Assembly: GCA_964515295.1 (NCBI GenBank) | Contig: CAZETW010000003.1 | Coordinates: forward strand, 4,768-68,767 | DNA length: 64,000 nucleotides | Direction of reading: 5' to 3' | DNA from: an uncultured bacterium | GTDB taxonomy: Bacteria; Zhuqueibacterota; QNDG01; CAYUAG01 | In this document: one piece after another, positions 20,328-42,274 of the stretch | How the letters are laid out: every line of letters starts with the position of its first letter | Numbering within the stretch: position 1 is the first letter of the stretch | Position numbers and translations under genes: made by a program | The notes under the pieces: model-generated | Told to the model about the DNA's origin: nothing | What the model saw: only the letters and a program-made list of their open reading frames with translations | The model's database searches: none

Positions 20328-20375
20328 TAATGATATAGTATCATTTAAGAACCATGTACTACTCTTTAATATAAT

Positions 20376-22151: not shown

Positions 22152-23314
22152 CAAATAGCGGTAAAATAAATGTGATGTTTTTTATTTCCAGTTATGGATT
22201 GGGAGGATATGAAGGAGTTCTGAAAAATTTAGTTGATAATTTTGACAAAAAAGAATTCAATATCACTGCCGTTCTTTGTTATCCCTTATATACTTCAAAA
22301 AATTTATCTGCAAGGATGAGGGAAAAGTATTTCAGATTTTTAGATTGGAAAGATGTAAAAAGATATGTAATTAAGATAAGATCTCCTTTTCATATACATG
22401 TTATATTAAGACTGGTAAACATTCTGAAGCAGCAAAAAATAGATGTATTATTTTTTTTTGCATTAGGGATGGGAACCTTTATTGCACCGATAGCCGGTAT
22501 TATTGCCCGTATTCAGGTACTTATCAGAACTGATGCAAATCTACTTCATGGATTATATCCTCCGGTTTTTAAACCATTAGATAATCTATTATTAAAATAT
22601 GTTGATAAAATTGTTTTTCCGGCAGACTATTTAAAAAATGAATATATGAAAAATTTTGATATTGAGGAAAGTAAACTTACCAGAATTTACAACGGAGTGG
22701 ATCTGTCAGTATTTTCGAAAGAACAAAAAACCAGTCAGATCAGGAATGAATTAGGTATTGATAAACAATATAATATAATAGGCATTATTGCGAATCTCAC
22801 TCCGGTAAAATCACATAAGATCCTTATACATGCTTTTCCTGCGGTTGTTAAAAAGCGCCCACAGACAAAATTGTTAATCATTGGTGAAGGTCCCCAGGAT
22901 GATGAACTGAGGCAGTTGGTTTCACAGTTAAATCTTGAAGATCATATTATATTTCTGGGATACAGATCCGATACTGCACAGTTAATATCAATATTTGATA
23001 TAGGTGTACTGTGTTCCATGAGTGAAATACATCCGGTGGCATTGTTAGAAATTATGGCATGTGGCGTTCCTGTTATTGCTCCTGCAGTTGGAGGAATACC
23101 GGAAATAGTTCAACATGAAGAAAATGGTCTTCTTTTTTCAGCAGGAAAATCAAATGAACTGAGTCAGCATATAATCAGATTACTGACAAATAAAAAAGAA
23201 GCAAAAATGTTTGCTAAAAAAGGGCAGATGTTTGTAAAGGAGCATTTTTCATTACAAAAAATGATAGTTAACTATCAGAATCTTATTATGGACATGTATC
23301 AAAATAATGAATGA
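22121..23314 (+). CDS. glycosyltransferase family 4
   Basis: 397 aa; GT-B C-domain LIIGEGPQDDEL...EIHPVALLEIMACGVPVIAPAVGGIPE; 31-nt overlap with upstream gene (alternative start ATG 22136). Confidence 0.8.
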   Translation: MAGSEMVHKVTNSGKINVMFFISSYGLGGYEGVLKNLVDNFDKKEFNITAVLCYPLYTSKNLSARMREKYFRFLDWKDVKRYVIKIRSPFHIHVILRLVNILKQQKIDVLFFFALGMGTFIAPIAGIIARIQVLIRTDANLLHGLYPPVFKPLDNLLLKYVDKIVFPADYLKNEYMKNFDIEESKLTRIYNGVDLSVFSKEQKTSQIRNELGIDKQYNIIGIIANLTPVKSHKILIHAFPAVVKKRPQTKLLIIGEGPQDDELRQLVSQLNLEDHIIFLGYRSDTAQLISIFDIGVLCSMSEIHPVALLEIMACGVPVIAPAVGGIPEIVQHEENGLLFSAGKSNELSQHIIRLLTNKKEAKMFAKKGQMFVKEHFSLQKMIVNYQNLIMDMYQNNE

Positions 23315-26659: not shown

Positions 26660-27649
26660 ATGAAAAGAAAAAATGAGTATAAAAAAAAATCTCTCTCAGT
26701 AGTTATTCCTCTCTATAATGAGAAAAAAAATGTTGTTCCTCTTTTTAAAGCCTTAAAAAAGGTGTTGCTGAATATGAAAAGAGAGGTGGAAATAATTTTT
26801 GTGGATGACGGCAGTAAAGACGGAACCAGAGAGGTTTTAAGAGAGATAGCACAGAAAGAAAATATAGTGAAAGTTATTTTTTTACGGAAAAATTTTGGTC
26901 AGTCAGCTGCCCTGGATGCCGGATTTAGAATCAGCAGCGGAGAAATTGTAGTGACTATGGATGGTGATCTCCAGAATGATCCGGAAGATATTCCTATGAT
27001 TATAGGAAAAATTGAACAAGGGTATGATGTTGTCAGTGGTTGGAGAAAGGACAGAAAAGACAAGCTTCTTTTCAGAAAAATACCGTCTATAATTGCTAAT
27101 AAGATAATATGTTCAATTACCAAAATCAAACTTCATGATACAGGTTGTGCATTGAAGGGGTACAAGAAAGAAGTAATTGACGGGATACGGCTGTACGGCG
27201 AACTGCATCGGTTTTTACCTGCTTTAACCAGAGTGGAAGGAGCTACAATTACTGAGGTTACAGTGAGACATCATCCCAGAAGGTTCGGAAGGTCAAAATA
27301 TAATTTAACCAGAACTTTCAGAGTATTGATGGATATGGTGTCATTACGTTTTTTTATTAAACATTTACGCAGTCCGTTGGGGTTTTTTGGTAAGATCGGC
27401 ATGCTGATAACTATGGCGGCGTTGATTGGTGCTGTATGGTGTGGATTTCAAATAATTGGTAAAAATATAAGTATTATTAATCTTAATGTACCTCTGACAG
27501 TAGTTTTTCTACTCTTAGTTGCTGGATTTCAATTTATTTTTTTAGGACTTATCGCCAGTCTAATTGTAAAAACCGGGGAGAGAAGTGGTTTTACCTTAAG
27601 TCCTTTTGTTTTGAATATAGATGAGGACAAGAATGAAGATAAAAAATAA
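26660..27649 (+). CDS. GT2 polyprenyl-phosphate sugar synthase (GtrB/ArnC/DPM1-like)
   Basis: 329 aa; VVIPLYNEKKNV, FVDDGSKDGT, DGDLQNDPEDI, two C-terminal TM helices. Confidence 0.8.
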   Translation: MKRKNEYKKKSLSVVIPLYNEKKNVVPLFKALKKVLLNMKREVEIIFVDDGSKDGTREVLREIAQKENIVKVIFLRKNFGQSAALDAGFRISSGEIVVTMDGDLQNDPEDIPMIIGKIEQGYDVVSGWRKDRKDKLLFRKIPSIIANKIICSITKIKLHDTGCALKGYKKEVIDGIRLYGELHRFLPALTRVEGATITEVTVRHHPRRFGRSKYNLTRTFRVLMDMVSLRFFIKHLRSPLGFFGKIGMLITMAALIGAVWCGFQIIGKNISIINLNVPLTVVFLLLVAGFQFIFLGLIASLIVKTGERSGFTLSPFVLNIDEDKNEDKK

Positions 27650-28589
27650 AATAATTAAGGAAGAGAAAATTTCTTATATTGTTTCTGTTTATAATATTGA
27701 AGATAAAGTGAATAATCTGTATGATTCTTCCAAAAAAATGCTTGAAAATATGAATGTTAACTATGAGATGATTTTTGTGGATGACGGAAGCAGTGATGAA
27801 ACTTGTCAACATTTGCAGTCTATCTCGGAAAATGACAAGAATGTAAAGATTATACGTATGCGTTCATCATTCGGGGAAGCCTGCGCTCTGGATGCCGGAA
27901 TAAAGTATTCTGTAGGGGGAAGAATAATTTTTTATAGTGGCCGGGTAAATATTAATATTGATGATATTGAAAAACTTGTTAAAAAGCATTCTTCGGGATA
28001 TGATCTGGTGGTGGGGTGGCGTTCTCCCAGAGAAGATTCCCTGTTAAATCGGTTGGTTTCATTTTTATTTAATAAATTGGTTGGTCTTTTTTCCGGTTGC
28101 AGAATACATGATATAAATAGTGGAATCTTTGTCTCTTACCGGTATGTATTTGATAATATATCTTATTATGGAAATCTCTACAATTTTATACCTGTTCTCT
28201 CACTGCAGCAGGGATATAAGATTTCGGAAGAAAAAGTAGAACAGGTTCCTGGATCCTACCGGACTTCACGAAATCCCAAAGAATATTTACGCAGGGTATT
28301 GGATATAGTAACAGTGTTCTTTTTAACAAAATACTCTAAAAAACCAATCCATTTCCTTGGTTTCGTAGGAACTATTTTTATTGTATTAGGTATGATAATC
28401 GAACTCTATCTTTTCTTTTACCGAATTTTTCTAATTGGCCCCATCGCAGGCAGACCGCTGTTAATTTTAGGTGCTCTGTTATTGGTTATTGGAATTCAGA
28501 TGATCTCTATCGGATTAATTGGTGAAATGATAATATTTACTCATGCAGGGGAAATAAAAGAATATAATATCGAAGAGATTATTGAGTAA
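27621..28589 (+). CDS. GT2 polyprenyl-phosphate sugar synthase paralog (GtrB-like)
   Basis: 322 aa; SYIVSVYNIEDKV, FVDDGSSDET, C-terminal TM helices; 29-nt overlap with upstream paralog. Confidence 0.75.
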   Translation: MRTRMKIKNKIIKEEKISYIVSVYNIEDKVNNLYDSSKKMLENMNVNYEMIFVDDGSSDETCQHLQSISENDKNVKIIRMRSSFGEACALDAGIKYSVGGRIIFYSGRVNINIDDIEKLVKKHSSGYDLVVGWRSPREDSLLNRLVSFLFNKLVGLFSGCRIHDINSGIFVSYRYVFDNISYYGNLYNFIPVLSLQQGYKISEEKVEQVPGSYRTSRNPKEYLRRVLDIVTVFFLTKYSKKPIHFLGFVGTIFIVLGMIIELYLFFYRIFLIGPIAGRPLLILGALLLVIGIQMISIGLIGEMIIFTHAGEIKEYNIEEIIE

Positions 28590-28656
28590 TTCATACGTTT
28601 TTACACTATAGCCAATAAAAGTCAGTATATTAACTATAAAAAAAGAGAGTTAAATA

Positions 28657-29658
28657 ATGTCAGATTTCCCTTATCACCTCCTTGAGCGAAAAAAGGTTTT
28701 AATAACAGGCGGACTTGGATTTATCGGAAGCAGTATAGCTCTCCGTTGCAGGGAGTTAGGGGCTGAAGTCACGATTCTGGATGCCTGTCTGGAACCCTAT
28801 GGATGGAATTTTGCCAATATTGAAGATATCACAGACGAGGTAGATTTTATTAAAGCTGATATAAGAGACCAAGAGCAGGTTGAAAAATTGACAGCAGATA
28901 AGGATTTAATATTTCATATGGCAGCTCAGGTGGGCAGGGAAATTTCTATGGAAGAGCCTAGGAAAGATACTGCCATTAATTGTTTTGGTACATTGAATCT
29001 TCTGGAATCTATACGAAACATGTCACACCCCCCTAAAGTAATTTATGCCGGCTCACGCGGACAGGTAGGAGAACCAAGGTATCTGCCGGTAGATGAAAAA
29101 CATCCTGATAATCCCACTGATATTTATGGAATAAATAAATTAGCAGCAGAAAAATATATTATGCTGTATCACTGGGTATATGATATTCCGGCAGTGTCTT
29201 TACGGTTGAATAATGTCTATGGTCCCCGATGTCAGATGCACGCAGGTTTTTACGGTATATTAAACTGGTTCATGTCGAATTGTATGCAGGATAAACCAAT
29301 CACAGTATATGGCAAAGGAACTCAAACCAGAGATTATGTATATATTGATGATACTGTAGATGCTTTTATCCGAGTGAGTCTGAGTGATAAGACGAATGGT
29401 GAGATTTTCTATGTTGGTTCCGGGGTTGAGACAGTATTTATTGATATGGTCAATGAGATCATCCGAACGGTCGGAAAAGGTGAAATTAAACATATTCCCT
29501 TTCCTGAGTCCAGAGAAAAGATAGATATCAATAAATTTGTTGTAACTTATGAAAAACTCAAGAAATTTGTTGAATGGGAACCGACAACAGATTTAAGAGA
29601 GGGTATAGGAAAGACATATGCATTTTATAAAAATAATTTACATGAATATTTAAAATAG
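28657..29658 (+). CDS. NAD-dependent epimerase/dehydratase (extended SDR)
   Basis: 333 aa; VLITGGLGFIGSSI, YGINKLAAE. Confidence 0.85.
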   Translation: MSDFPYHLLERKKVLITGGLGFIGSSIALRCRELGAEVTILDACLEPYGWNFANIEDITDEVDFIKADIRDQEQVEKLTADKDLIFHMAAQVGREISMEEPRKDTAINCFGTLNLLESIRNMSHPPKVIYAGSRGQVGEPRYLPVDEKHPDNPTDIYGINKLAAEKYIMLYHWVYDIPAVSLRLNNVYGPRCQMHAGFYGILNWFMSNCMQDKPITVYGKGTQTRDYVYIDDTVDAFIRVSLSDKTNGEIFYVGSGVETVFIDMVNEIIRTVGKGEIKHIPFPESREKIDINKFVVTYEKLKKFVEWEPTTDLREGIGKTYAFYKNNLHEYLK

Positions 29659-29700
29659 TAGAGATAAAGCTATATTAAATTAAATATGTAGGACAATATT

Positions 29701-30669
29701 ATGAAGTTAATTATTCAAATACCTTGTTTTAATGAAGAAGAGACGCTGCCTTTGACGTTAAAAGACATTCCCCGTACGTTTAAAGGGATAGACACTGTTG
29801 AAATACTAGTCATTGATGATGGCAGTACAGATAATACTTTCGAAGCTGCCAGAAAAGCAGGGGTTGATCATATTGTTCAGCATACACATAATAAAGGATT
29901 AGCTCAAAGTTTTGCTACCGGTTTAAAAGAAAGCCTGCTCCGGGATGCTGATATTATTGTTAATACTGATGGAGATAATCAATATGCAGGGAAAGACATT
30001 CAAAAATTAATTGATCCCATTATAACCGGAAAGGCTGATATCGTTATTGGTGACCGAGAAGTCATGTCTGTTGAACATTTTTCATTTATTAAAAAGTGGC
30101 TTCAGCGTATGGGCAGTTGGGTGGTCCGTCAGCTTTCCGGCACAAATATACCGGATGTTACCAGCGGATTTCGAGCAATAAGCAGAGAAGCAGCATTACA
30201 GATTAGTATTTTGTCAAAATTTACCTATACTCTGGAAACAATAATACAGGCCGGAAAGAAAAATATGTCAATAACGCATATTCCAGTCAAAACCAATGAA
30301 AAATTACGACCTTCCCGACTCTTCAGCACTATCCCTGTCTATTTAAAACGATCTCTGGGAACAATTCTTAAAGTATATACACTTTATACACCATTAAAAG
30401 TTTTTTCCATCATTGGAAGTGTAATTTTCGGCATTGGATTGATTATTTCTATACGGTTCCTATATTTTTATATTACAGGTGACAGCAGCGGGCATATTCA
30501 GTCTTTAATTCTTTCTGCTGTATTTATGATTGTAGGGTTTCAGATTTTTGTTATTGGGCTAATGGCTGAGTTAATAGCTACCAACAGAAAATTTTTAGAG
30601 GATATAATTTATCAAGTTAGAAAGATAAATTTATCCATGAAGAAGAGGAATGAAAAAAAAGAAAAATAA
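29701..30669 (+). CDS. GT2 polyprenyl-phosphate sugar synthase (GtrB/DPM1-like), third paralog
   Basis: 322 aa; IIQIPCFNEEETL, VIDDGSTDNT, TDGDNQY, two C-terminal TM helices. Confidence 0.8.
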   Translation: MKLIIQIPCFNEEETLPLTLKDIPRTFKGIDTVEILVIDDGSTDNTFEAARKAGVDHIVQHTHNKGLAQSFATGLKESLLRDADIIVNTDGDNQYAGKDIQKLIDPIITGKADIVIGDREVMSVEHFSFIKKWLQRMGSWVVRQLSGTNIPDVTSGFRAISREAALQISILSKFTYTLETIIQAGKKNMSITHIPVKTNEKLRPSRLFSTIPVYLKRSLGTILKVYTLYTPLKVFSIIGSVIFGIGLIISIRFLYFYITGDSSGHIQSLILSAVFMIVGFQIFVIGLMAELIATNRKFLEDIIYQVRKINLSMKKRNEKKEK

Positions 30670-31756
30670 AAATATAATTAAAATATGTTATATTGCAGGC
30701 AGGGAAGCCACGTATACAAGAACCAGGACGATATTAGAAGCACTTAAAAATAATGGATATGATGTTATCTCCTGCTTGCCTGTTGATAAGTCTTTTTTTC
30801 ATTATCCTTTGCTTCTGTGGCATTTTTTTTGGAAACATAAAGATTGTCAGCTTATTATTGTTGGTTTTTATGGCCAGTTGCTTCTGCCCTGGGTAAAACT
30901 TTTTACTAATAAGAAAATACTGTTTGATCTTTATGTATCAACCTATGATACCATGGTGTATGATCGAAGAGTCACTGCCTCCAATACACTTTTAGCTAAA
31001 TGGTTTCGTTTTTCTGATCGCTTATCAATGAGACTGGCTGATAAAATTATTCTGGAAACCAGGGATCATATTGATAATTATGCTGAAAAATTTAAAGTTT
31101 CTAAAGAAAAATTCTTTCATATATTTCTGGGATTAAATGAGAGTTTATTTATTCAGGATAAAAAGGCTAAAAAGAAAAAAAGTAGTTTCCTGGTTCATTT
31201 TCATGGTGAGTATGCGCCTTTCCACGGAGTAGAGTATATCCTTGAAGCTGCAGATTTATTACGTAACGAAAACGTCTGTTTCAGAATAATTGGTACTGGC
31301 ATAACCTATCAAAAGAATATGGAATTGGCGGCCAGGTTGAAACTTACTAATGTTGAATTTATAGATGGGGTTCCTTATGAATTGTTATCGGTTAAAATGT
31401 CTGAAGCTGATTGCTGCTTGGGATTCTTTGGTATTAATCCCAGAGCTGAAAGAATATTAACCAATAAAGTGATTGAAACCTTAGCAGTGGGTAAACCGCT
31501 TATCACCGGGCATAATCAGCCTGTACAGGAATTACTGGAGCATAATAAAAATGCTTTACTTATTAATAGAGGTGATCCTGGGGCATTAGCAGAGGCAATT
31601 TTACGGTTAAAAGAAAATCCATCATTAAGAAAAAAAATTGCAGAAAATGGCCATGTTGTTTTTAAGAAGAACTGTTCATTGAAAGTGTTTTCTCAAAAAT
31701 TAAAGACAGTAATTGAAGTGCTAATATCCGAAGATAAACAGAGATGGTTTAAATAA
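30650..31756 (+). CDS. glycosyltransferase (GT-B fold, GT1/GT4-like)
   Basis: 368 aa; C-terminal domain with ...KVIETLAVGKPLITGHN... Confidence 0.65.
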   Translation: MKKKKNKNIIKICYIAGREATYTRTRTILEALKNNGYDVISCLPVDKSFFHYPLLLWHFFWKHKDCQLIIVGFYGQLLLPWVKLFTNKKILFDLYVSTYDTMVYDRRVTASNTLLAKWFRFSDRLSMRLADKIILETRDHIDNYAEKFKVSKEKFFHIFLGLNESLFIQDKKAKKKKSSFLVHFHGEYAPFHGVEYILEAADLLRNENVCFRIIGTGITYQKNMELAARLKLTNVEFIDGVPYELLSVKMSEADCCLGFFGINPRAERILTNKVIETLAVGKPLITGHNQPVQELLEHNKNALLINRGDPGALAEAILRLKENPSLRKKIAENGHVVFKKNCSLKVFSQKLKTVIEVLISEDKQRWFK

Positions 31757-31885
31757 TTTTTTTTGTCACATAAGTAAAACCGAATGCTTTAATGAGCTGA
31801 GAATTTGAAGTATAATACATACATAGAGTTTTATGTATAGAAATAATTAGATAAAAGTCTTAATAAAAGTGAGGAATGCCGTAAT

Positions 31886-32800
31886 ATGCTTCATAAACAA
31901 GAAATATTCTGTTCTGTAATCATCCCCAGTTATAATTCCAAAAACAAGATCTGTAAGACACTTGACGCTTTGAAAGAGATGGAAACTGAACATGCGCATG
32001 AAATAATTGTGGTGGATTCTTCTGCTGATGAAACGCCGGATATTATTAAAAAAAAGTATCCCTGGGTAAAATTAATACATCTTGAAGAACAAACCTATCC
32101 TGGATCAGCCAGGAATTTGGGTATAAGACATTCCCGGGGAAATATTATTGCATTTCTGGATTCCGATTGCACTGTTATTAAAGAATGGCTGGATATAATA
32201 GTTGAAACTCATCTTACTCACCCCGACTATGCAGCAGTAGTAGGAAGTATAGGCAATGGTACTCCTTATAATTTAGTAGGGACTGCTTCTTATTTAATAG
32301 AATTTAATGAATGGACACCAAAAACTAAGAAACGTGAAATAGATTATATTCTGGGCGGTAATGTCAGTTATAAGAAGGAGATTATTATGAAACACAGTCT
32401 TTCTTATACTGATATTTTTCCTTCCGAGGATACGATCTTTGCTCAGGATCTTATTGCAAAGGGAGAGAAAATAATATTTATTCCGGAATTAATTGTATAT
32501 CATGTGAATAATACTGATTTATCACATGTTTTAAGACATCAGTATGTGCTCGGCAATGCTTCTGCCAAAGCCAGGCGGGATAAAAATATGTTTGGGAATA
32601 TAATCAGCAAATATAAAATTTTAATATTAGGTGTTCCTTTTGTTCGTTATGTTAGGGCTTTTATAAGGCTTTTAAAGCAGGATTTTATATTATTTATAAT
32701 CTTTATTGTTATCTCTCCTCTTTATATTTTAGCAGTATTTTGCTGGGCAATTGGATATATGGGAAAAGATAAGTTTAAGCCTACAAAAATTAAAGTATAA
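31886..32800 (+). CDS. glycosyltransferase family 2
   Basis: 304 aa; SVIIPSYNSKNKI, VVDSSADET, FLDSDC (DxD). Confidence 0.75.
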   Translation: MLHKQEIFCSVIIPSYNSKNKICKTLDALKEMETEHAHEIIVVDSSADETPDIIKKKYPWVKLIHLEEQTYPGSARNLGIRHSRGNIIAFLDSDCTVIKEWLDIIVETHLTHPDYAAVVGSIGNGTPYNLVGTASYLIEFNEWTPKTKKREIDYILGGNVSYKKEIIMKHSLSYTDIFPSEDTIFAQDLIAKGEKIIFIPELIVYHVNNTDLSHVLRHQYVLGNASAKARRDKNMFGNIISKYKILILGVPFVRYVRAFIRLLKQDFILFIIFIVISPLYILAVFCWAIGYMGKDKFKPTKIKV

Positions 32801-32826
32801 TGTATAATATATAATTTATTAAGCTC

Positions 32827-34362
32827 TTATTTATTCTTATCATCAAATGATATAGTATCAGTTTTATTTACCAGCCATATAGTAGAACCAGTAAAACAGG
32901 AATCCTGCCATAATAAAGATGCATTATTTTTCAGCCATGTATTAATATTTTCTTTAAATGGTGAATCTGGTAACAGTCCGTCTGTAGTAAAAATAAGGTT
33001 TTTAAATTGAGCAGACAGTGAGTCCATTTCAGAGGTGGATTCTATCTGTATTCTTCGCACTGTTGGATTATTAAAGGAAAGTTTGGATAAGTAATACCGA
33101 ATACTGTAGTCTCCCCATTCAGGGATGGAAATAATGGTTGTGTTCTCAGAATTATATTCAGATATATATGATATTCCCTTTTCCCAGTCAGGTTTTTTTT
33201 GATTTATATAATAATAATAAAGAATATAAGAATTAATTGCGGTTAATAGTATTACAATTACTTTTATAGAGTTTGTGTGAGAAGCATGATGTATCTTAGT
33301 TTTTTTAAAACCGGCTGTTTTCCCCCAAAAATGTGAGATTATGTTGCCTAAAGAGACTGCAGAGCAGGTTAACAATAAAAGATAAGGAATAAGGAGAAAT
33401 ATCAGGAATCTGTAACCACTGCCGAAATAGATAACGAATGTACTCATCCAGCTCAGCAGTAAAGAAAAAAGTATTATATAACCGTTAAAAATAAATATTT
33501 TTTTGTATTTGTTCCATCCGGTTATCATGCCTGATATGATAAATAATCCCATAAAATATTTAATATATCTGTCTAAGAAGCAATGGGGAAGATCTACTGG
33601 ATTTATTAAGTTTTTACCAAATATTAATATAAAATGAAGCGGATGTATACTGTGACGATATGAAGTAGATGCACTAAGCTTAGCAGAGGTTTGTTGAAAG
33701 AAAAAGAATGATTGCGGTATATGGCCAATAAAGATAATTAACAAGGAATAAAAGAACCATTTTTGATATTTAAAAGATGATTTTATGTTTTTTGTAAAGA
33801 GTAAATAAAAAATATATAAGGATATTTGCGAGGCAAGCAGAATCAGGGAAAAATAGTGGATGTAAAAATTAACTATGCTGACTCCTGCCCACATCAGCCA
33901 GTCATGTTTTTTCTGATATATCACAGCTTTGTAAAGGAATACAAAAGATACAAGAGATATCAAAAGAAAAAGTGAATAAACGCGTGCTTCCTGAGAATAA
34001 CGAATATGAAAAACTGATACAGTAAGCAGAAGGGCTGCTATTATTGCTTCTTTTTTCCCGATGATACGATGAGTGAGAGAATAAAATAATGGAACAGCTG
34101 CAATACCACATAAAGCAGAAAAGAAGCGAAGTGCAAATTCAGATTTACTCAGTTTAACTATAAAGTGAATAATTAAATAATAGGTTGGGGGGTGAACATC
34201 CCACCCATAAGAGTTTTTTATGATTTCAGAAAAACCTAAAACCGCTCTGTAAAAAGTAATGGCTTCATCAAACCACAGACATTCTTTTCCTAAGTTATAT
34301 AGTCTGAGGAAAATTGCTAAACCTAAAATAAGATAAAAAAGGATTGATTGTTTGTTTTTCAT
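32827..34362 (-). CDS. GT-C membrane glycosyltransferase, PMT/ArnT-like (GT39/GT83 family)
   Basis: 511 aa, polytopic; first external loop LRLYNLGKECLWFDEAITFYRA carries the DE-xx-Y motif of lipid-carrier-dependent GT-C enzymes. Confidence 0.75.
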   Translation of the reverse strand: MKNKQSILFYLILGLAIFLRLYNLGKECLWFDEAITFYRAVLGFSEIIKNSYGWDVHPPTYYLIIHFIVKLSKSEFALRFFSALCGIAAVPLFYSLTHRIIGKKEAIIAALLLTVSVFHIRYSQEARVYSLFLLISLVSFVFLYKAVIYQKKHDWLMWAGVSIVNFYIHYFSLILLASQISLYIFYLLFTKNIKSSFKYQKWFFYSLLIIFIGHIPQSFFFFQQTSAKLSASTSYRHSIHPLHFILIFGKNLINPVDLPHCFLDRYIKYFMGLFIISGMITGWNKYKKIFIFNGYIILFSLLLSWMSTFVIYFGSGYRFLIFLLIPYLLLLTCSAVSLGNIISHFWGKTAGFKKTKIHHASHTNSIKVIVILLTAINSYILYYYYINQKKPDWEKGISYISEYNSENTTIISIPEWGDYSIRYYLSKLSFNNPTVRRIQIESTSEMDSLSAQFKNLIFTTDGLLPDSPFKENINTWLKNNASLLWQDSCFTGSTIWLVNKTDTISFDDKNK

Positions 34363-34542
34363 ATATTTATTTATAAAAATTTTAATTTAATATAAATAAA
34401 CAGAGTAGAAAAATCAAGTATGATTTCAGTATTTTCTTGACATTAATTATTATAATGTTAACTTTCAACTGTAGGTTCACAAGAAAGGGAAGAATTTTAA
34501 TATTATATATACAATTTATAATGTTTAGATTGGGGATCATAT
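34363..34542. promoter_or_regulatory. divergent intergenic region between two GT-C glycosyltransferase genes
   Basis: 180 bp AT-rich spacer between a - strand start (34362) and + strand start (34543). Confidence 0.3.
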
Positions 34543-36222
34543 ATGAGATTATTTGTAAAGCCTTTCAAAAATACGGTTCCCTTTATTATTGTTGTACTTC
34601 TTCTTTTACTTCGGGCAGCATGGGAATATGTGGCTCCGGTGAATCCGGATGATTTCAAGGGCCTGATATATCTGAGAGATATAGTGTTTGTTTTTCCAGC
34701 TAGTTTAATATTAACTTACACACTGTTTATACATGTTGATTCCATAGTCTCTGAGAAAATAAACTATTTGGACTGGATTCAGAAGAGAAAACGGATAATA
34801 ACATTTATAATGGCTGTGATAATTTTCTGCCTGTGTTTATTATTAAATATATTTGTCTATAAGACCTGTGCTCATATTGTGGATGAAGCAAATTATCTTT
34901 TTCAGGCAAAGGTTTTTGCATCAGGAAGGTTATGGGCACAACCTCCCGAACTTTCCAAAGAATTCTTTCACCTTCTTTATTTTGTCCAGACTCCGGATAA
35001 ATGGTACGGTTCATTCTTTCCAGGTCAAAGCTTACTGCTGGCTTTAGGGATACTGTTAAAAATGCCTTTTCTGATCAATCCTTTTCTTACAGCTGTTCTT
35101 TTAATAACCACAGTTTGGGCAGGTCAAAAAATTTATTCGGCACATACCGGGATAATAGCAGGATTTTTTTTGCTGTGCTCTCCTTTTGTATTGTTTCAGG
35201 GGGCAAGTTATTTTTCACATATTCTCCCGGCAATAATTATTACTGTATTACTGGTATGGATTGCAAGGTTTGGAGAGTTTACTCATAAAAAATGTATTAT
35301 CAGCGGATTAATAACAGGAATGCTTTTTCTCTTTCGTCCACTATCGGCATTTGTCATAATTGTATTTTTTTTATTTTATATTGTATTCCAAGTTATAAAA
35401 AATAAAGATTTCAATGTTAAGGTTGGTATCAATTTTCTGATTCTGTTCGGTATCGGATTGTTGCCGGGGATTATATTGTTGTTAGGATATAATTATTATT
35501 TAACCGGTCAATATTTTACCACACCTCATCAATTAGCGTTACCCAATGAAACCATGCGGTTTGGAATTCATTCATTAAAAAATACTTTAATTAATGTAAC
35601 GGGACTTTCAGTTGATTTATTGGGATTACCCTTAATATCTTTGATTCCTGTTATTTTATTTTTTATTTCCCGCTGTCAATATTCAAAATTGTTTTTGATT
35701 TTCAGTGTTATGTACTGTATAGCATACAGTATATACCCGTATCACGGATTGAGTTACGGACCCCGGTTTTATTTCGAGCTGGTTCCCCTCTTACTTATTG
35801 GTTCTGTACAGGTATTGTTGAAAAAATGTACTTTTCCAAAGAGGAAATTAACCGGATTATTTTCATCTTTATCTAAAAATGCAATTATTATTACATTATT
35901 TATTACAGTTCCTGTTATTTCTTTTCTGGGTATAGTACCGTGGAGAGTTTCAGTATTTGTCAACAGGGGGGAATATTATAACATTAAAGATACTGTACAA
36001 AAAAAGGTTATACCTCCTGCAATCGTCTCAATAAAAAGTTCTGATAAAGAACGTATGATACCGTATTTGGCTGGTTTTCAACTAAATTCTCCAATCTGGA
36101 AAGGAAATGTTATATTTGTTCATTATTTACCAGAGAAAAAAGATGAAATAATGATGAAATATCCTGAAAGACGTCATTATATACTGGATATGGACAAAAA
36201 AATTGTTATTTCAGATACTTGA
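34543..36222 (+). CDS. putative GT-C-type membrane glycosyltransferase
   Basis: 559 aa, ~11 TM helices; early loop HIVDEANYLFQAKVFASGRLW resembles DE-xx-Y loop of ArnT/PMT. Confidence 0.55.
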   Translation: MRLFVKPFKNTVPFIIVVLLLLLRAAWEYVAPVNPDDFKGLIYLRDIVFVFPASLILTYTLFIHVDSIVSEKINYLDWIQKRKRIITFIMAVIIFCLCLLLNIFVYKTCAHIVDEANYLFQAKVFASGRLWAQPPELSKEFFHLLYFVQTPDKWYGSFFPGQSLLLALGILLKMPFLINPFLTAVLLITTVWAGQKIYSAHTGIIAGFFLLCSPFVLFQGASYFSHILPAIIITVLLVWIARFGEFTHKKCIISGLITGMLFLFRPLSAFVIIVFFLFYIVFQVIKNKDFNVKVGINFLILFGIGLLPGIILLLGYNYYLTGQYFTTPHQLALPNETMRFGIHSLKNTLINVTGLSVDLLGLPLISLIPVILFFISRCQYSKLFLIFSVMYCIAYSIYPYHGLSYGPRFYFELVPLLLIGSVQVLLKKCTFPKRKLTGLFSSLSKNAIIITLFITVPVISFLGIVPWRVSVFVNRGEYYNIKDTVQKKVIPPAIVSIKSSDKERMIPYLAGFQLNSPIWKGNVIFVHYLPEKKDEIMMKYPERRHYILDMDKKIVISDT

Positions 36223-36480
36223 TTTTATGCTGATATTTTAGTATATTTTAAATTATTTATATGTCTGAGACTGATTGCAGTGCATGAAAAAAGACCATTA
36301 ATGGGGATTTCCCCAGGTAGGATAAAGGTTACTATTAGAAAAAGTTTATATTTTTAAATATATATTATATGAACATCTATCATATTATTATCTTTCCCAA
36401 GCTACTATTAATATTTTGCATCACAAAGAAAGGATTATTTTTTTAAAAATACTTAATTTAAGATAAAAACCAAATACATA

Positions 36481-38181
36481 ATGAACCGGATAATATATAA
36501 TAAATATTTTTCTAAGATTTATCACAAAATAATTGAGCATTGGGAAATGCTCATGTTTTTAATTATTGGTTTTGTGATTCGTTTATTCTTGACAAGATAT
36601 CAGGAAGTTGTGTCATATGATGAAGTAAATTATCTTAAATTAGCTGTTTACGGAGCGATACATGGCATAATGAATGTTATGCATACATATTGGTCACCCT
36701 TTTATCCATTTATTATTGCTTTATTCTCCAAGATTTCGTCAAACTATGAGATCATTGCCAGACTTATTTCAGTATTCTGCGGCAGCCTGGTGATATTGCC
36801 TTTGTACAAGCTTGCACGATATCGACTGACAAAAAAAACTTCTGTAATCACTATTGCTATGATAGCCCTGTACCCTGCTTTGTCTTCATTGAGTGCTAAA
36901 ATATTAACAGAATCTCTCTACATATTTTTGGGAATATCCGGAGTATTGGTTATCTGGAATTCTCTTACGAAAAAATCGCTTGGATTATCGTTTTGTGGCG
37001 GAGTTGTTTTTGGGATGACCTACTTGACTCGTCCTGAGGGGATAGGATTTATTATTATTGTGATAATGATCAATCTTATTCTTTTAATTAACAGTATGTT
37101 TCAGAGAAAGAAAAATAAGTATATTCAATTGGTGATTTTTTCTGTATTAGGATTTATAATAACTTCTTCACCATATTTATTATTCTTGCATCATAAAACA
37201 GGTGAATGGACCATAAGCGCAAAGCAAAAGTCTTTACAGCAGGCAGAGGCTGATGTATTTAAACATGAAAAAGAAGACTATCAATTCAGAAAACTTTCTG
37301 CTGATAATAAATCACTTCTTATTGATCAAATGTTTCATCTTGGAAATTTTATTACAGCAGAAGAAGAAAGAGGAGAGCCTGTAGTTCAGGTGACGTTATT
37401 TTTAATGGTCCAGAAATATATTAAAAATTTCCATGAATTAATTAATATGATAGTTCCTACCGTAATTCCGCTTACACTGGCTGTATTCTTAATTCTGGGT
37501 CTTTTCTGTCGGACAGGGGGAAAAGAGAAAATATTGTTTGATTTGTATCTTCTGAGCTTTATAATCTTTTTTTGGGGTATTGTTATCCCGCTTTTTCATA
37601 TTAATTACCGATATTTTTTACCAATATTACCAATATGTTTCATCTGGATTGGTAAAGGCGTGGTTGTTTTTTATTCCTGGGTGAAGAATTTATTTCATAA
37701 TCTTATCATATGGAAAAATAAGAAGTTATTTATTCAAATGATATCTTTATTATCAGTATTTCTTTTTATTTCTTTGTCGTATGTACCTGATTATATAAAA
37801 TTTTTTACTGACAATACTGCTGCTGCCACCAGATGGGCAAAGCCGGTTGAATATAAAAGAGCTGGTTTATGGTTAAAGAATAACTGTACAACAACACCTG
37901 TTGTAATGAGCCATTATCAAATCGTAAGTTACTATGCCGGGAATTATGATATAACTGAATCGGTTAGTATCCCTTTCAACACTATTGATAGGGTGCTGGA
38001 ATATGCTGAATATAGAAACGTAGACTATCTTGTTTTATCTGAAAGATATGTAAGACTGTTTCCTCTCATTGAAAATCTTTTTTATATGAAAAATATACCT
38101 GAGAAATTAAAGGTTGTGTATCATTTTGAAAGCAAAGCAGATTTGAGAGTAGTTATTTATAAATTAATGCATGATAAATGA
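36481..38181 (+). CDS. GT-C membrane glycosyltransferase, PMT/ArnT-like
   Basis: 566 aa polytopic; first loop LTRYQEVVSYDEVNYLKL (DE-xx-Y); large C-terminal soluble domain. Confidence 0.7.
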   Translation: MNRIIYNKYFSKIYHKIIEHWEMLMFLIIGFVIRLFLTRYQEVVSYDEVNYLKLAVYGAIHGIMNVMHTYWSPFYPFIIALFSKISSNYEIIARLISVFCGSLVILPLYKLARYRLTKKTSVITIAMIALYPALSSLSAKILTESLYIFLGISGVLVIWNSLTKKSLGLSFCGGVVFGMTYLTRPEGIGFIIIVIMINLILLINSMFQRKKNKYIQLVIFSVLGFIITSSPYLLFLHHKTGEWTISAKQKSLQQAEADVFKHEKEDYQFRKLSADNKSLLIDQMFHLGNFITAEEERGEPVVQVTLFLMVQKYIKNFHELINMIVPTVIPLTLAVFLILGLFCRTGGKEKILFDLYLLSFIIFFWGIVIPLFHINYRYFLPILPICFIWIGKGVVVFYSWVKNLFHNLIIWKNKKLFIQMISLLSVFLFISLSYVPDYIKFFTDNTAAATRWAKPVEYKRAGLWLKNNCTTTPVVMSHYQIVSYYAGNYDITESVSIPFNTIDRVLEYAEYRNVDYLVLSERYVRLFPLIENLFYMKNIPEKLKVVYHFESKADLRVVIYKLMHDK

Positions 38182-38189
38182 GTTGTTAA

Positions 38190-39554
38190 ATGAATTTTGA
38201 TGTTAGATGGTTAATTGCTGTAATTATCTTAATTGTAGGCACAATATTTTTTGCCTTCAGCCGGAAAAAGGAAATCTTTTTAACCAGAGCATTGATTTTT
38301 GTCATGCCCTTTGCAATTGGGTTTTATTATATTGCAGTATCGAGGGAAGAAGATGCAATTAATGCCTGCGATGTGATACTCCTTTTTCTTTATATTTACT
38401 GGTTTTGGGAAACAGATGGATTTAAATCTCAAAAAATATATTTTGATAAAATATTTTATTTATATACTGCTGTCATTATATGGATATTACTTCCTACAGT
38501 TATTGTCATTTCACCGTCAAGTTTACTGTTTGCTGCTTTTATGTGGATAAAATGTTTATTACTTTTCTTTTATGTTTCCAACAGAGTGAAAACAATGGAG
38601 CATTTAAAAGCCATTATTGATATGCTGATTATTATGCTGTTTATACAGGCGTTGATAGGTACTTTACAGAAGATATTAGGGCATACCTTAGGATTAGGTT
38701 TTTTAGGGGAAAGATCAAGTGTTTATTTAAGGGGGTTTACCCAGGCACGTGCCAGAGGTACATTGGGATTTCCTAATAAATATGCTGCCTATATGATTAT
38801 GCTGATGCCTCTCACAGTTACTATGTTTATATATTCAGAAAAAGGGATAAAAAAAATATGGTATTCACTTATTATTATTTTATCAAGTATGGGGTGGATC
38901 TTTTCTTTATCACGGTCTGCCTGGATAGGATTAGTCGGTGCTTTGGTAATAATATTTATTTTTATGACCAAAGCATCGAAGGTGAATTTAAAATCATTTT
39001 TACTGCTGTTGGTTATGGTAGCAATTATTTCTACAGTTATTATTTATTTTGCAGATCACGTTATGGGAAGGATCGAGATGACCGGCGACCAGCCCTATAG
39101 ATGGATAATGATGAGAAAGGCTGTTGAGTTAATGGGTTCCCATCCTGTATTTGGGGTTGGATTATGGAATTATCAGTTCCATTCGTATGGAGAGTTCAGA
39201 TACTGGCATGCGGTACATAATATGATTTTACGTCTGGGTGCAGAAATAGGAATTCCAGGATTACTAATATTTTTATCTATGTTATATAAAAATTTCAAAA
39301 ATTGTTTAATGACATTAAAATTCAAAAACAGATATTTAGAATATATAACATTAGGAATAATGGGTGGATTACTGGCATTTCTGCTTGCGGCTTTGTTTAA
39401 TCCTCAATTTCAGTCTTATCGTCATAAATTTTTATTTTGGTTTTTAATGGGATTGGCTGTGTCTGTTAAAAGAATTGGATTACATGAAGCATACTTAGAA
39501 TTCAAGAAAAGAAAAAAGAATCAGGCTTTGCAGGATAAGTTACCTGGGTTATAA
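38190..39554 (+). CDS. O-antigen ligase / polymerase family protein (Wzy_C domain)
   Basis: 454 aa, ~10-12 TM; Wzy_C signature region IFSLSRSAWIGLVGALVIIF and periplasmic loop HAVHNMILRLGAEIGIPG. Confidence 0.8.
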   Translation: MNFDVRWLIAVIILIVGTIFFAFSRKKEIFLTRALIFVMPFAIGFYYIAVSREEDAINACDVILLFLYIYWFWETDGFKSQKIYFDKIFYLYTAVIIWILLPTVIVISPSSLLFAAFMWIKCLLLFFYVSNRVKTMEHLKAIIDMLIIMLFIQALIGTLQKILGHTLGLGFLGERSSVYLRGFTQARARGTLGFPNKYAAYMIMLMPLTVTMFIYSEKGIKKIWYSLIIILSSMGWIFSLSRSAWIGLVGALVIIFIFMTKASKVNLKSFLLLLVMVAIISTVIIYFADHVMGRIEMTGDQPYRWIMMRKAVELMGSHPVFGVGLWNYQFHSYGEFRYWHAVHNMILRLGAEIGIPGLLIFLSMLYKNFKNCLMTLKFKNRYLEYITLGIMGGLLAFLLAALFNPQFQSYRHKFLFWFLMGLAVSVKRIGLHEAYLEFKKRKKNQALQDKLPGL

Positions 39555-39583
39555 ATTCAATATTTATATTCATTTATTATAGT

Positions 39584-40567
39584 ATGGAGGTGTTTACATT
39601 GAAAATATTAATAACAGGCGGAGCAGGTTTTATAGGTTCTCATCTTTCAGAATCATTGGTTGAAAAGGAAGAAAATGTTACGGTCATTGATAATTTGTCC
39701 ACAGGAAGATATGACAATATCAGACAATTAGTAGATCGTAAGAATTTTAGATTCATTGTAGATTCAATATTAAATATTGAAACTCTGGAAACATTAATTC
39801 AGGATTGTGATATAATATATCATTTGGCGGCTTCAGTGGGAGTAAAACGGATTGTATCGAAACCTGTGGATACTATTGAAACTAATGTTCTGGGAAGCCA
39901 TGCTGTATTCAGTTTAGCAGCAAAATATAACCGGGAAGTGATTCTATTTTCTACTTCTGAAGTGTATGGGAAAAATCAAAATCTTCCATTTAAAGAGACT
40001 GATGATTGTATATTCGGAACAACTATGATGAGCAGATGGAGTTATGGATGCAGTAAAGCGGTGGATGAATTTCTGGGACTGGCATATCATAAAGAGCAGG
40101 GTCTTCCGGTAATTATTATTCGTGTTTTTAATATGATTGGTCCACGACAAACCGGAGTATACGGAATGGTTGTACCAACATTTATCAGACAGGCACTTTC
40201 AGGTATGCCTATTACTGTTTATGGAGATGGTACCCAATCCAGGTGTTTTACCTATGTGCAAGATTTGGTTGATACAGTTATAAAATTTCCAAAAAGAAGA
40301 GAATGTGTCGGCAATATATATAATATCGGGAGTGAAGATGAAATATCAATTAATGAGTTAGCTGAGAAAATCAAGAAAAAAATTCGCTCCAAATCTGAAA
40401 TTGTTTATATACCCTATGAAAAAGCCTATGAGCAAGGATTTGAGGATATGAACAGAAGAAGACCGGATATATCAAAGATAAAAAAAGAATTTGGTTTTGA
40501 ACCTAAAGTTAATTTAGATAAAGCTTTAGATTTGATTATTGAGTATCAAAAGAAGGCAATAGCTTAA
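39584..40567 (+). CDS. NAD-dependent epimerase/dehydratase (UDP-sugar decarboxylase/dehydratase-like extended SDR)
   Basis: 327 aa; ILITGGAGFIGSHL, YGCSKAVDE. Confidence 0.85.
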   Translation: MEVFTLKILITGGAGFIGSHLSESLVEKEENVTVIDNLSTGRYDNIRQLVDRKNFRFIVDSILNIETLETLIQDCDIIYHLAASVGVKRIVSKPVDTIETNVLGSHAVFSLAAKYNREVILFSTSEVYGKNQNLPFKETDDCIFGTTMMSRWSYGCSKAVDEFLGLAYHKEQGLPVIIIRVFNMIGPRQTGVYGMVVPTFIRQALSGMPITVYGDGTQSRCFTYVQDLVDTVIKFPKRRECVGNIYNIGSEDEISINELAEKIKKKIRSKSEIVYIPYEKAYEQGFEDMNRRRPDISKIKKEFGFEPKVNLDKALDLIIEYQKKAIA

Positions 40568-40597
40568 TATCTTGATCGATTAAAGGGGGTTAAAAAC

Positions 40598-42274
40598 ATG
40601 TTAAAAGACAAAAAAGTAACATATAAACATTTTTCAATAATACTTTTAATACTATTACTGTTGATTGGTGGATTCTTGAGATTATGGAATTTAGGTGAAC
40701 GTAGTTTATGGGTTGATGAAGTAAACACCGTATTTGCTGCTCAGTCAATGAAAGATACAGGTGTGCCTGAACATCCATCCGGTGTGATATATAACATAAC
40801 TCCCTTGTTTACTAAGTGTGTATCATTAATCTATCAGGTATTGGAAGTTGATGAGGCTTCTTCACGCATACCTTCAGCAATTTTCGGGATTCTTGCAATT
40901 ATTTTGGTTTTTTATTGCGCAAAAACTGTTTTTAACAGGAGTGTAGGGTTATTTTCAGTATTTTTAATGACATTTTCTCATTTTGAAATAGGATGGTCCA
41001 GAGTTTCAAGACCATACACCTTGTTGCAGGTTTTTACATTATTGGTAGTGATATTTTTTATTAAAGGATTTGAGAATCCAAAATATAATCGAAAAAATTT
41101 TAACAATGTAATTTCGAAGCAAAATAAATTTAATCAGTTAAGAAGTTCACTGGCACATTTACAAATTTCCCCTCTCTGGTTATTACTATTTATTGCTGTT
41201 TTGGGCTATTCATATTTAGAAATCAATGATTTAATGGTATTTGTTGCAGGTGGTTTTTGTGTTTATATTTTTTTTATGAGTTTAGTGGGATTGTATTGGA
41301 AAGAAAGGTATAAAAAAATTATAAATAAATATTCTGTTTGTTCTGCAGTAATTATTCTGCTTGGAGTGATTTATTTTTTGTTTTCTCAGGGTCTACAGAA
41401 TGACATCAATTTTTTTCTGGGATATACTCCTCCCTGGGCAGTAGAATCATCACCAGTAACTGACAATTTGTATTTATTTAATTTTTTAATATCCAGTATG
41501 AAATTTCCTATAGCTGTATTTTTTTTCCTTGGCTGCGTACAGCTGATGAGTCACAGAAATCGTTTAGGCTGGATATTATTGTGGGTATTTATAGTGCCGC
41601 TTTTTTTGTTATCCTTGGTATTTACTCATAGAGCACCCAGATATTTATTTTTTGTTTATCCGTTTTTTCTTATTATAAGCAGTTACGGATTTATTAATAT
41701 TGTACAAAATGAGTTCGAAATACTGAAAAAAGATTTAATTTTTAAATACAAATGGTTACAATACTGTATTATCTTTGCCTTTTTTATAATATTCTTGATA
41801 TCTCCCTGGTTTCGATTCAGTTTGAAGATTCCATTTCAAGGTGATGGTGTTACAAACGGAGCCGTCACCACGGATGAATGGAAGGAAGCAGCTGGAATAG
41901 TTAAGTATAATATGAAAATGGATGATATAGTAATAACGAGTCTCCCTCAGGTTGCATATTATTATAATGTAAAATCAGATTATGGTTTGAACTGGATCAA
42001 TCTTAATCGTGCTGAAATTCAGTCTTTTAAAAATGATACAGGTCACTACATTGATATTTATGCAGGTATACCATGTATAGCATCTTTGGATGAATTAAAA
42101 CAAATTGTGGAATCAAATGAACGGGGATGGATTATTATTACTCAATATCATTTTGAACATACTAAAGTAATTCCTGAGGAGGTAAGAGAATACATAGAAA
42201 CAGAATTTAACGTAGCATATAGGACAAAAAAAGGAACAATTTTAATCTATTTATGGAAACCAAATTCGGAATAA
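40598..42274 (+). CDS. GT-C membrane glycosyltransferase, PMT/ArnT-like (fourth copy)
   Basis: 558 aa polytopic; first loop LRLWNLGERSLWVDEVNTVFAA (DE motif); C-terminal soluble domain. Confidence 0.7.
   Translation: MLKDKKVTYKHFSIILLILLLLIGGFLRLWNLGERSLWVDEVNTVFAAQSMKDTGVPEHPSGVIYNITPLFTKCVSLIYQVLEVDEASSRIPSAIFGILAIILVFYCAKTVFNRSVGLFSVFLMTFSHFEIGWSRVSRPYTLLQVFTLLVVIFFIKGFENPKYNRKNFNNVISKQNKFNQLRSSLAHLQISPLWLLLFIAVLGYSYLEINDLMVFVAGGFCVYIFFMSLVGLYWKERYKKIINKYSVCSAVIILLGVIYFLFSQGLQNDINFFLGYTPPWAVESSPVTDNLYLFNFLISSMKFPIAVFFFLGCVQLMSHRNRLGWILLWVFIVPLFLLSLVFTHRAPRYLFFVYPFFLIISSYGFINIVQNEFEILKKDLIFKYKWLQYCIIFAFFIIFLISPWFRFSLKIPFQGDGVTNGAVTTDEWKEAAGIVKYNMKMDDIVITSLPQVAYYYNVKSDYGLNWINLNRAEIQSFKNDTGHYIDIYAGIPCIASLDELKQIVESNERGWIIITQYHFEHTKVIPEEVREYIETEFNVAYRTKKGTILIYLWKPNSE

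Follow-up and report, generated by a model that had tools for sequence, protein, structure and literature searches.

Organization of the locus

The stretch analysed here, 64 kb of contig CAZETW010000003.1 (in the following the window, with positions counted from its first nucleotide), carries a polysaccharide locus of roughly 50 kb that extends from about 7.5 to 58 kb, with nearly all genes on one strand. The window is AT-rich, with about 30–40% GC, and the locus is bordered by housekeeping genes, namely purH and lgt at one end and yebC, ruvC and ruvA at the other. The region between 26660 and 42274 is the core of this Wza/Wzc, Wzx/Wzy-type locus, inside which many GT4 and GT2 glycosyltransferase (GT) genes and several methyltransferase genes are found. 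Three of its genes, here termed A, A' and B, encode homologues of polyprenyl-phosphate GTs and four, C1 to C4, encode polytopic GT-C proteins; three genes of the MOP family, Wzx1 to Wzx3, are located upstream and downstream (Table 1). Together these components may form a multi-component machinery for extracytoplasmic glycosylation. C1 is the sole minus-strand gene within 26660–42274. The gaps between the genes of the module are tiny, and the largest intergenic gap inside the locus does not exceed 258 bp.

The Pfam scan covered the 49 open reading frames (ORFs) of the window that comprise at least 150 amino acids (aa). Relatives were found in 417 species-level genomes, from which 80 loci were fetched as a sample (numbered with the prefix L where they have to be distinguished); 41 of them have full 20-kb flanks and are referred to as full-length. 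The genome to which the window belongs is missing from the species representatives, the best match there being 85%, and exact copies of the window proteins are found in metagenome assemblies only. Named relatives of A' belong mostly to candidate division KSB1 and Calditrichota, in addition to metagenome-assembled genomes labelled 'Cytophagia'. It is from these relatives and from a type IX sorting domain in a related locus (see below) that the phylum is deduced.

Two canonical synthases

A, A' and B are each composed of an N-terminal GT-A domain (PF00535; E-values of 1.6e-36, 8.5e-17 and 2e-22, respectively) and C-terminal transmembrane (TM) helices, with two hydrophobic helices visible in the hydropathy profile of each protein, and all three align over their full length to solved members of the class. 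Judged by sequence, they are homologues of the polyprenyl-phosphate GTs. Full-length alignments to PDB entries identify ArnC as the closest solved homologue of A (9hwj, E 2e-47), followed by GtrB (5ekp, E 3e-35) and DPMS (E 3e-22). The score of A against the NCBIfam equivalog model for ArnC is 182 bits at a cut-off of 529 bits, and PgfS, which comes from a protein-glycosylation system, ranks second among its NCBIfam matches. For B, the best PDB alignment is obtained with DPMS (5mlz, E 2e-16; ArnC, E 1e-12) and the best NCBIfam match with AglJ (E 1e-37), followed by PpgS (E 3e-19), the Agl-family score being far below its cut-off.

Both A and B possess the DxDxQ motif. DGDLQN is kept in all 73 orthologues of A recovered from the 80 fetched loci. 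Likewise, D[GA]DNQY is effectively invariant among 66 orthologues of B, where both aspartates, the glutamine and the tyrosine are present in every sequence and the asparagine in 65. Conservation in A amounts to 0.71 in the GT domain and 0.50 in the C-terminal part, and the corresponding values for B are 0.78 and 0.66.

A paralogue without DxDxQ

The reading frame of A' overlaps the end of A by 17 nt when translated from ATG 27633, or by 29 nt from the alternative ATG 27621; the former start is preceded by a Shine-Dalgarno-like GAGGA and is the one picked by the public gene call. With an identity of 34% between them, A and A' are indeed the tandem overlapping paralogues that a preliminary description of this DNA had noted. 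In full-length alignments A' matches ArnC with an E-value of 1e-26 and GtrB with 4e-25.

ArnC is a tetramer whose protomers are bridged by a C-terminal hairpin; D100 has been proposed to act as catalytic base, and Mn is bound by D102 and Q104 (PMC12690121). According to the alignment to ArnC, the equivalent residues of A' are Ser, Arg and Asn. Both aspartates are absent in all 83 members of the A' family, which share the motif [TSA]-x-R-V-[RNHK] with an invariant arginine (83/83). The position equivalent to D100 is occupied by Ser, Thr or Ala in 82 members and by Gly in one, and never by Asp. The three GtrB/ArnC/DPM1-like synthases of the preliminary description thus hold as homologues with full-length alignments, whereas DxDxQ is kept only in A and B, which leaves two canonical synthases for four GT-C proteins. 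On this basis A' is regarded as a synthase homologue by sequence rather than as a demonstrated member of the class by mechanism.

The conservation profile of A' is inverted relative to that of A and B, with 0.59 in the GT domain and 0.80 in the C-terminal part, so that the membrane/C-terminal region is its most conserved portion. At E-values below 1e-5, 948 homologues were found, the top 120 being 52–92% identical. In about 80 of 82 loci A immediately precedes A', frequently with an overlap, and B then follows in 65; wherever the flank was long enough, A' was found to have A directly before it. A decaying duplicate was considered as an explanation for A', but is ruled out by the number of homologues, by identities of about 50–65% across distant lineages and by the invariant replacement residues. 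From sequence, a role as a non-catalytic partner of A is slightly favoured. A full-text search within a limited paper collection returned no relevant paper on catalytically inactive polyprenyl-phosphate GT paralogues.

GT-C proteins C1 to C4

The four polytopic GT-C proteins (511–566 aa) described earlier were all confirmed with their motifs WFDEA, VDEANY, YDEVNY and WVDEVN. In each of the four, the DE pair follows the first canonical TM helix, with its sidedness derived from the positive-inside rule and the helices of the models. Matches to PMT_2 (PF13231) exceed the Pfam cut-off of 26.1 bits in C1 (54.3 bits, E 2e-14), C3 (43.3 bits, E 6e-11) and C4 (39.5 bits, E 9e-10). The Pfam scan gave no match for C2; its remote homologues, with 21–33% identity, carry PMT_2. 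D40 and E41 are invariant in the family alignment of C4, and in the C2 family D114 never varies and E115 is conserved to 90% or more.

Since a sequence search of C1–C4 against PDB chains yielded no match even at E-values up to 1, C2 and C4 were compared by fold. Models calculated with AlphaFold2 from the family alignments (pLDDT 92.8 and 87.8, respectively) were compared with the PDB by Foldseek, and in both cases ArnT was the best match (5f15 for C2, E 4e-7; 5ezm for C4, E 3e-10). Oligosaccharyltransferases (OSTs), ALG mannosyltransferases, Aft/Emb and PMTs come next, and the next-best folds of C4 include AglB, STT3 and PglB. The OST motif WWDxG was not found in C1–C4 by motif search, and C4 has no large periplasmic domain. 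Likewise, Pfam detected no Wzy_C domain (PF04932) in C1–C4, the sole Wzy_C gene being that at 38190–39554. Matches of the GT-C proteins to TIGR04154 (E 1e-6 to 5e-4) are far below the cut-off. An ArnT/PMT-like rather than Wzy-like or OST-like nature of these proteins, as presumed in the preliminary description, is therefore supported.

Pairwise similarity between the GT-C proteins is nearly nil and limited to 29% identity over 138 N-terminal residues of C1 and C4; the four are not recent duplicates.

Conservation of the cluster

Comparison with the 80 related loci, in all of which the cluster recurs, revealed a common gene order. The upstream part reads [GT4a, AsnB1, MT2, GlpD-like, SDR2, hexapeptide-GT2] – AsnB2 – A – A' – B and continues with (GT1x, SDR3) – GT2y – C4 – (SDR-GFO) – Wzx2 – Cps2T-like GT4 – RmlD – C3-like. 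A and A' are present in all 41 full-length loci, B in 40, AsnB2 in 33, Wzx2 in 28 and C4 in 25; in 24 of these 25, C4 is located within two genes of Wzx2. Identities amount to 50–65% for A, A' and B in most related loci and to 29–47% for C4, and the trio (with C4 where present) is conserved across at least two phylum-level groups.

C3-like genes are found downstream of RmlD in many related loci. C1 on the minus strand and C2 occur together in the order of the window only in the three closest relatives (L005–7), and C3 follows this block in L007, where the fetched flank reaches. C1 is 66–69% identical in these three loci, and a more distant best-match ORF with 37% identity is present in L031.

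The layout is hence that of a conserved trio A/A'/B plus C4, complemented by lineage-specific extra GT-C genes. The preliminary description had instead assumed three to four synthase/GT-C pairs arranged as a repeated module. This reading did not stand: two canonical synthases face four GT-C proteins, and repetition is ruled out by the near-absent pairwise similarity of the latter together with the synteny of a conserved core with lineage-specific additions. The cluster probably marks a core envelope glycoconjugate of KSB1/Calditrichota-type bacteria, on which nothing was found in the limited paper collection searched.

Flippase candidates

The absence of GtrA and the presence of three MOP genes, both reported before, were borne out in the 64-kb window. 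No Pfam match to GtrA (PF04138), SMR or EamA was obtained among the scanned ORFs, and a hydropathy screen of the window detected no small multi-TM ORF outside the larger genes. As the rest of the genome is unseen, the lack of GtrA holds for these 64 kb only. A GtrA-like small multi-TM ORF was not detected in the 80 related loci either, by a hydropathy screen and not by a GtrA-profile search. The three MOP genes are accompanied by one phosphoglycosyl transferase gene in the window.

Two membrane genes that are common in related loci are absent from the window according to tblastn, one of the YdjM family and one encoding LPG_synthase_TM (PF03706, MprF-flippase-like). The YdjM-family protein (PF04307, about 185 aa) is encoded right next to the start of A, frequently with an overlap, in about 60 of 67 related loci (for example L012, 8463–9002, and L004, 8513–9061), and is missing from the three closest relatives as well as from the window. 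The LPG_synthase_TM gene is situated just upstream of AsnB2 in most related loci. This slot upstream of AsnB2/A was scored in the 51 loci whose upstream flank reaches 7 kb or more: 37 contain PF03706 without a MOP gene, 6 a MOP gene without PF03706, 8 neither and none both. In two of the eight loci with neither, a 48%-identical Wzx1 homologue is located just past the 7-kb limit. In the window, the slot is occupied by GT4b–Wzx1. The mutual exclusivity of PF03706 and MOP (Fisher's exact test, p about 2e-4, uncorrected for relatedness) looks, from gene content, like a non-orthologous displacement.

The slot pattern, the linkage of C4 and Wzx2 and the excess of MOP genes over the single phosphoglycosyl transferase provide comparative support for flipping of undecaprenyl-phosphate (Und-P)-linked sugars by MOP proteins. 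Such flipping of lipid-monophosphate sugars is an already proposed idea and not new. The Wzx-type protein GacK is the proposed flippase of C55-P-N-acetylglucosamine in S. pyogenes (PMC8035078), and a MATE-family protein has been put forward to flip UndP-ribofuranose in the synthesis of Citrobacter O antigens; flippase activity has not been directly demonstrated in such systems (PMC11127046). In archaea, an MprF-like domain encoded beside AglD-like GTs and PMT/STT3-like enzymes was predicted to flip lipid-linked saccharides (PMC5898192).

The three closest relatives L005–7 are colinear with the window, apart from an extra MOP gene between GT2y and the minus-strand C1 (Table 1). In its place the window holds 26 nt (32801–32826).

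Proposed mechanism and alternatives

The whole arrangement can be read as one extracytoplasmic glycosylation machinery, a scheme to which a probability of about 0.55 is assigned. A and B would load Und-P with two different monosaccharides at the cytoplasmic face, the donors probably being provided by the co-conserved nucleotide-sugar enzymes SDR4 (possibly a uridine diphosphate (UDP)-pentose) and SDR3 (an epimerase or dehydratase). The translationally coupled A' would most likely act as a non-catalytic partner of A within an ArnC-like tetramer. The lipid-linked sugars would then be flipped by a non-GtrA protein, in the lineage of the window most plausibly a MOP protein, for which Wzx1, positioned in the slot of the MprF-type flippase-like gene, and Wzx2, tightly linked to C4, are candidates. 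At the periplasmic face, C1–C4 would transfer the sugars to different acceptor positions, with C1–C3 being largely lineage additions. The polymer whose synthesis the locus itself encodes is the probable acceptor.

Several points weigh against this scheme. None of the three MOP proteins reaches an NCBIfam family cut-off, all matches being far below, so that NCBIfam does not assign them to a family, and a flippase of the GtrA, SMR or PplT type could be encoded elsewhere in the genome. The slot statistic ignores phylogenetic relatedness and derives from perhaps three or four independent lineages, and the synteny labels are best BLAST matches of the longest ORFs to the window proteins. Moreover, the fold likeness of the models cannot separate mono- from oligosaccharide transfer, with OSTs as next-best matches. 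Finally, A' keeps the GT-domain invariants DDGSxD, R130, R133, D135, D160 and S212; with these residues and the invariant arginine at a metal-ligand position it could bind a nucleotide sugar or act metal-free.

It is this last point that would allow A' to be an active enzyme, either metal-free or using a different donor, which is the main alternative to a partner role. The invariant arginines, one of which takes the place of the Mn ligand D102, would then substitute for the metal, and three different lipid-linked donors would be produced by the locus, as assumed in the preliminary description. Metal-independent GT-A enzymes that use basic residues exist, and the retained residues of the GT domain would suit such a mechanism. 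An active A' is nevertheless doubtful, given that the D100 equivalent is never Asp in 83 members, that constraint is strongest on the membrane/C-terminal part and not on the GT domain, and that A' accompanies A wherever the flank suffices. A rather serious possibility, although short of an even chance, concerns the transporters: all three MOP proteins might be conventional flippases for repeat units linked to undecaprenyl diphosphate, belonging to two or three concatenated loci, with an Und-P-sugar flippase (GtrA, SMR or PplT type) encoded elsewhere. The single phosphoglycosyl transferase and single Wzy_C gene of the window argue against this, as do the proximity of C4 to Wzx2, the exclusivity of MOP and LPG_synthase_TM in the slot and the fourth MOP gene beside the C1–C3 block of the closest relatives. 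It would be in keeping with the best matches of Wzx1 and Wzx3, which are exopolysaccharide Wzx models, and with the window being only 64 kb of a genome. In Lactococcus, for example, several GT-A/GT-C pairs are served by the single flippase CflA, whose gene is located elsewhere (PMC8035078).

With respect to the acceptor, the module might glycosylate another envelope target, either proteins, as do PMT and the streptococcal Pgf system, or lipid A or a glycolipid, as in the Arn, Flm and Lgm systems, and reside in the locus only for shared precursors. The deep conservation of A/A'/B and C4 over at least two phylum-level groups, which is unusual for hypervariable side chains of capsules or O antigens, fits a core envelope function, and the ArnC and PgfS matches of A and the PMT_2 membership of the GT-C proteins point in the same direction. 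However, the module sits with tiny gaps and on one strand among Wzx, Wzy, GT4 and Cps2T-like genes, Pfam detected neither an ArnB-type aminotransferase nor ArnD or ArnE/F in the window, and A remains far from the ArnC equivalog cut-off, so that a target other than the polymer is considered unlikely. An Agl-like pathway, in which B would begin an oligosaccharide on undecaprenyl monophosphate that GT1x and GT2y lengthen, Wzx2 flips and C4 transfers en bloc, is very improbable: ArnT is the best fold of C4, which with 558 aa has neither WWDxG nor a large periplasmic domain, and every Agl-family score is far below cut-off, despite the conserved order B–GT1x–SDR3–GT2y–C4–Wzx2, the AglJ match of B, a weak AglG match of GT2y and the rank of AglB, STT3 and PglB directly after ArnT among the folds of C4. 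Moreover, we know of no bacterial monophosphate-linked oligosaccharide donor.

If A' is indeed a non-catalytic partner of A, it might represent an undescribed family of non-catalytic ArnC/GtrB paralogues that form a hetero-tetramer with A and whose membrane/C-terminal region hands over or translocates the Und-P-sugar. This extension is distinctly unlikely. Should A' help in translocation, the synthase complex would be partly self-sufficient in GtrA-less clusters. Flipping of a product by the TM domain of the synthase itself was recently raised for DPMS of P. furiosus (PMC12992685).

Comparison with known systems

In known systems the Und-P-sugar is made by a membrane-anchored GT2 and transferred extracytoplasmically by a polytopic GT-C, and several such sets are possible per organism (PMC11127046, PMC8035078). 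The same division of labour between GT2 synthase and GT-C is found in the three-component Gtr system for glucosylation of O antigens (GtrA/GtrB/Gtr*) and, among Gram-positive bacteria, in CsbB/YfhO/GtcA and in CsdAB/CsdCD/CsdEF with CflA of Lactococcus. In contrast to Gtr-type systems, a GtrA-family flippase was not found within the window, nor detected by the hydropathy screen in the related loci. Two canonical synthases here face four GT-C proteins in one locus, in addition to a paralogue lacking DxD, and the core is neither phage-borne nor serotype-specific but shared by phylum-level groups. GacI/GacJ/GacK/GacL of S. pyogenes and the pentofuranose system of Citrobacter youngae O1/O2 (MATE-family ORF14) resemble the cluster in that a MOP-superfamily flippase of the lipid-monophosphate sugar, and not GtrA, has been proposed for both. 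GacI needs the non-catalytic membrane partner GacJ (PMC11127046, PMC8035078). The putative partner in the present cluster, however, is a full-length synthase paralogue and not a small DUF2304 protein, and the synthases are ArnC-/DPMS-like, not phosphoribosyl transferases.

The cluster also resembles the Arn pathway, which places 4-amino-4-deoxy-L-arabinose on lipid A: A is nearest to ArnC, the folds of C2 and C4 are nearest to ArnT, and an SDR resembling UDP-glucuronic acid decarboxylases is encoded beside C4. Yet Pfam detected no aminotransferase, formyltransferase, deformylase or ArnE/F (SMR) in the window, A falls well short of the ArnC equivalog cut-off, SDR4 is nearer to UXS than to ArnA, and the context is a Wzx/Wzy polysaccharide locus. 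Most relatives of the cluster combine a polyprenyl-phosphate GT, PF03706 and a PMT_2 GT-C and thereby resemble the archaeal neighbourhood of AglD-like GT, MprF-like domain and PMT/STT3-like enzyme predicted by Makarova et al. in 2015 (PMC5898192). The present cluster, however, is bacterial, and in the lineage of the window PF03706 is lacking and a MOP gene takes its slot.

New in comparison with these systems are the coupling of an active synthase to a conserved paralogue that lacks DxD, the depth to which the cluster is conserved among KSB1/Calditrichota-type genomes, the finding that PF03706 and MOP exclude each other in one slot and the presence of four divergent GT-C proteins for two canonical donors. 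Extracytoplasmic glycosylation by synthase, flippase and GT-C is widespread, and the control of synthase activity is poorly understood; with the deeply conserved A/A' pair, the polyprenyl-phosphate GT class may have its first example of a partner subunit that is itself a paralogue. The swap of PF03706 and MOP offers comparative evidence on which proteins flip lipid-monophosphate sugars, and the four ArnT-like transferases, set against two canonical donors, could be useful for studies of acceptor and linkage specificity.

Neighbouring genes and further observations

Table 1. Position and assignment of the genes discussed. Positions refer to the window unless a related locus is named.
Feature	Position	Strand	Assignment
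Wza	7549–8229		
Wzc	8254–10539		
Phosphoglycosyl transferase	12234–13667		sole phosphoglycosyl transferase in the window
Wzx1	23307–24785	+	MOP family; Polysacc_synt E 2e-21; best NCBIfam match Wzx_EPS E 3e-16, far below cut-off
AsnB2	24782–26596	+	asparagine-synthetase-like; Asn_synthase E 2e-68, weak GATase domain
A	26660–27649	+	polyprenyl-phosphate GT, ArnC/GtrB clade, DGDLQN motif
A'	27633–28589 (alternative ATG 27621)	+	ArnC/GtrB-like paralogue, SGRVN in place of DxDxQ
SDR3	28657–29658	+	nucleotide-sugar epimerase/dehydratase; Epimerase E 3e-46
B	29701–30669	+	polyprenyl-phosphate GT, DPMS/AglJ/PpgS clade, DGDNQY motif
GT1x	30650–31756	+	GT-B glycosyltransferase, WcaI-like C-terminal half; member of the conserved cluster
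GT2y	31886–32800	+	ordinary GT2 with C-terminal membrane anchor, not ArnC-like
C1	32827–34362	-	GT-C, PMT_2; DE at residues 32–33 after TM1
C2	34543–36222	+	divergent GT-C; two extra N-terminal helices; DE at 114–115
C3	36481–38181	+	GT-C, PMT_2; DE at 47–48
Wzy_C-family polymerase or ligase	38190–39554	+	Wzy_C E 4e-17
SDR4	39584–40567	+	UDP-glucuronate decarboxylase (UXS)-like; directly upstream of C4
C4	40598–42274	+	GT-C, PMT_2; D40/E41; most widely conserved GT-C of the cluster
SDR-GFO	42296–44407	+	fused SDR and Gfo/Idh/MocA oxidoreductase; member of the conserved cluster
Wzx2	44401–45825	+	MOP family; best matches MurJ and SpoVB; syntenic partner of C4
Cps2T-like GT4 (DUF1972) rhamnosyltransferase and RmlD-like reductase	45839–47850	+	NF046071 E 9e-55; RmlD_sub_bind E 5e-74; 3' end of the conserved cluster
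Wzx3	49126–50586	+	MOP family; Polysacc_synt E 3e-36; Wzx_EPS E 8e-22; distal part of the locus
Extra MOP of the closest relatives	L005 15336–16721; L006 15245–16639; L007 15156–16535		Polysacc_synt_3/MurJ (Pfam), 28–30% identical to Wzx2

AsnB2, located directly upstream of the A/A'/B trio and kept in 33 of the 41 full-length loci, starts with MIFGVTGN and is devoid of the N-terminal catalytic Cys; AsnB1 (14865–16742) has the normal start MCGICG. SDR3, which among PDB entries is most similar to Pal and UDP-glucose 4-epimerases, is conserved beside B and GT1x and is 57–70% identical in most related loci that possess it. GT2y, for which the AglG match in NCBIfam is far below the cut-off, usually just precedes C4 in relatives, and its similarity to A is limited to the N-terminal 91 aa. 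The best PDB match of SDR4 is human UXS1 (E 5e-57), compared with about 1e-33 for the C-terminal domain of ArnA, and NF008872 is matched with an E-value of 4e-48; this UXS-like sequence would suggest a UDP-pentose donor. In other loci SDR4 adjoins C4 or, on the upstream side, A. A scan for promoters and terminators between 26 and 45.9 kb gave counts not above those of shuffled sequence, so that operon boundaries could not be drawn.

Upstream of the trio, 17650–22151 encodes a GlpD-like (glycerol-3-phosphate dehydrogenase-like) flavin adenine dinucleotide enzyme, an SDR and a fused hexapeptide-acyltransferase/GT2 of 591 aa, genes that are co-conserved at this position in many related loci. In the lineage represented by L023, the Wzx1-like gene is separated from AsnB2 by three genes (1556–6561), which encode a deacetylase of the PIG-L family, an acetyltransferase of the GNAT type and an FG-GAP/cohesin protein of 935 aa; the 935-aa protein ends in a C-terminal sorting domain of the type IX secretion system, which fits an organism of the FCB group. 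At the edge of locus L069 (20086–20403), a 106-aa DUF2304 protein is encoded beside another GT2 gene.

The 5' edge of the locus is formed by a STAS-domain protein (6675–7379) directly upstream of Wza, which may be a regulator. At the 3' end (53031–58184), a 949-aa protein combines Golvesin_C, fn3 and weak GHL15 domains, and three sulfotransferase genes, each of a different Pfam family, suggest that the polymer is sulfated.

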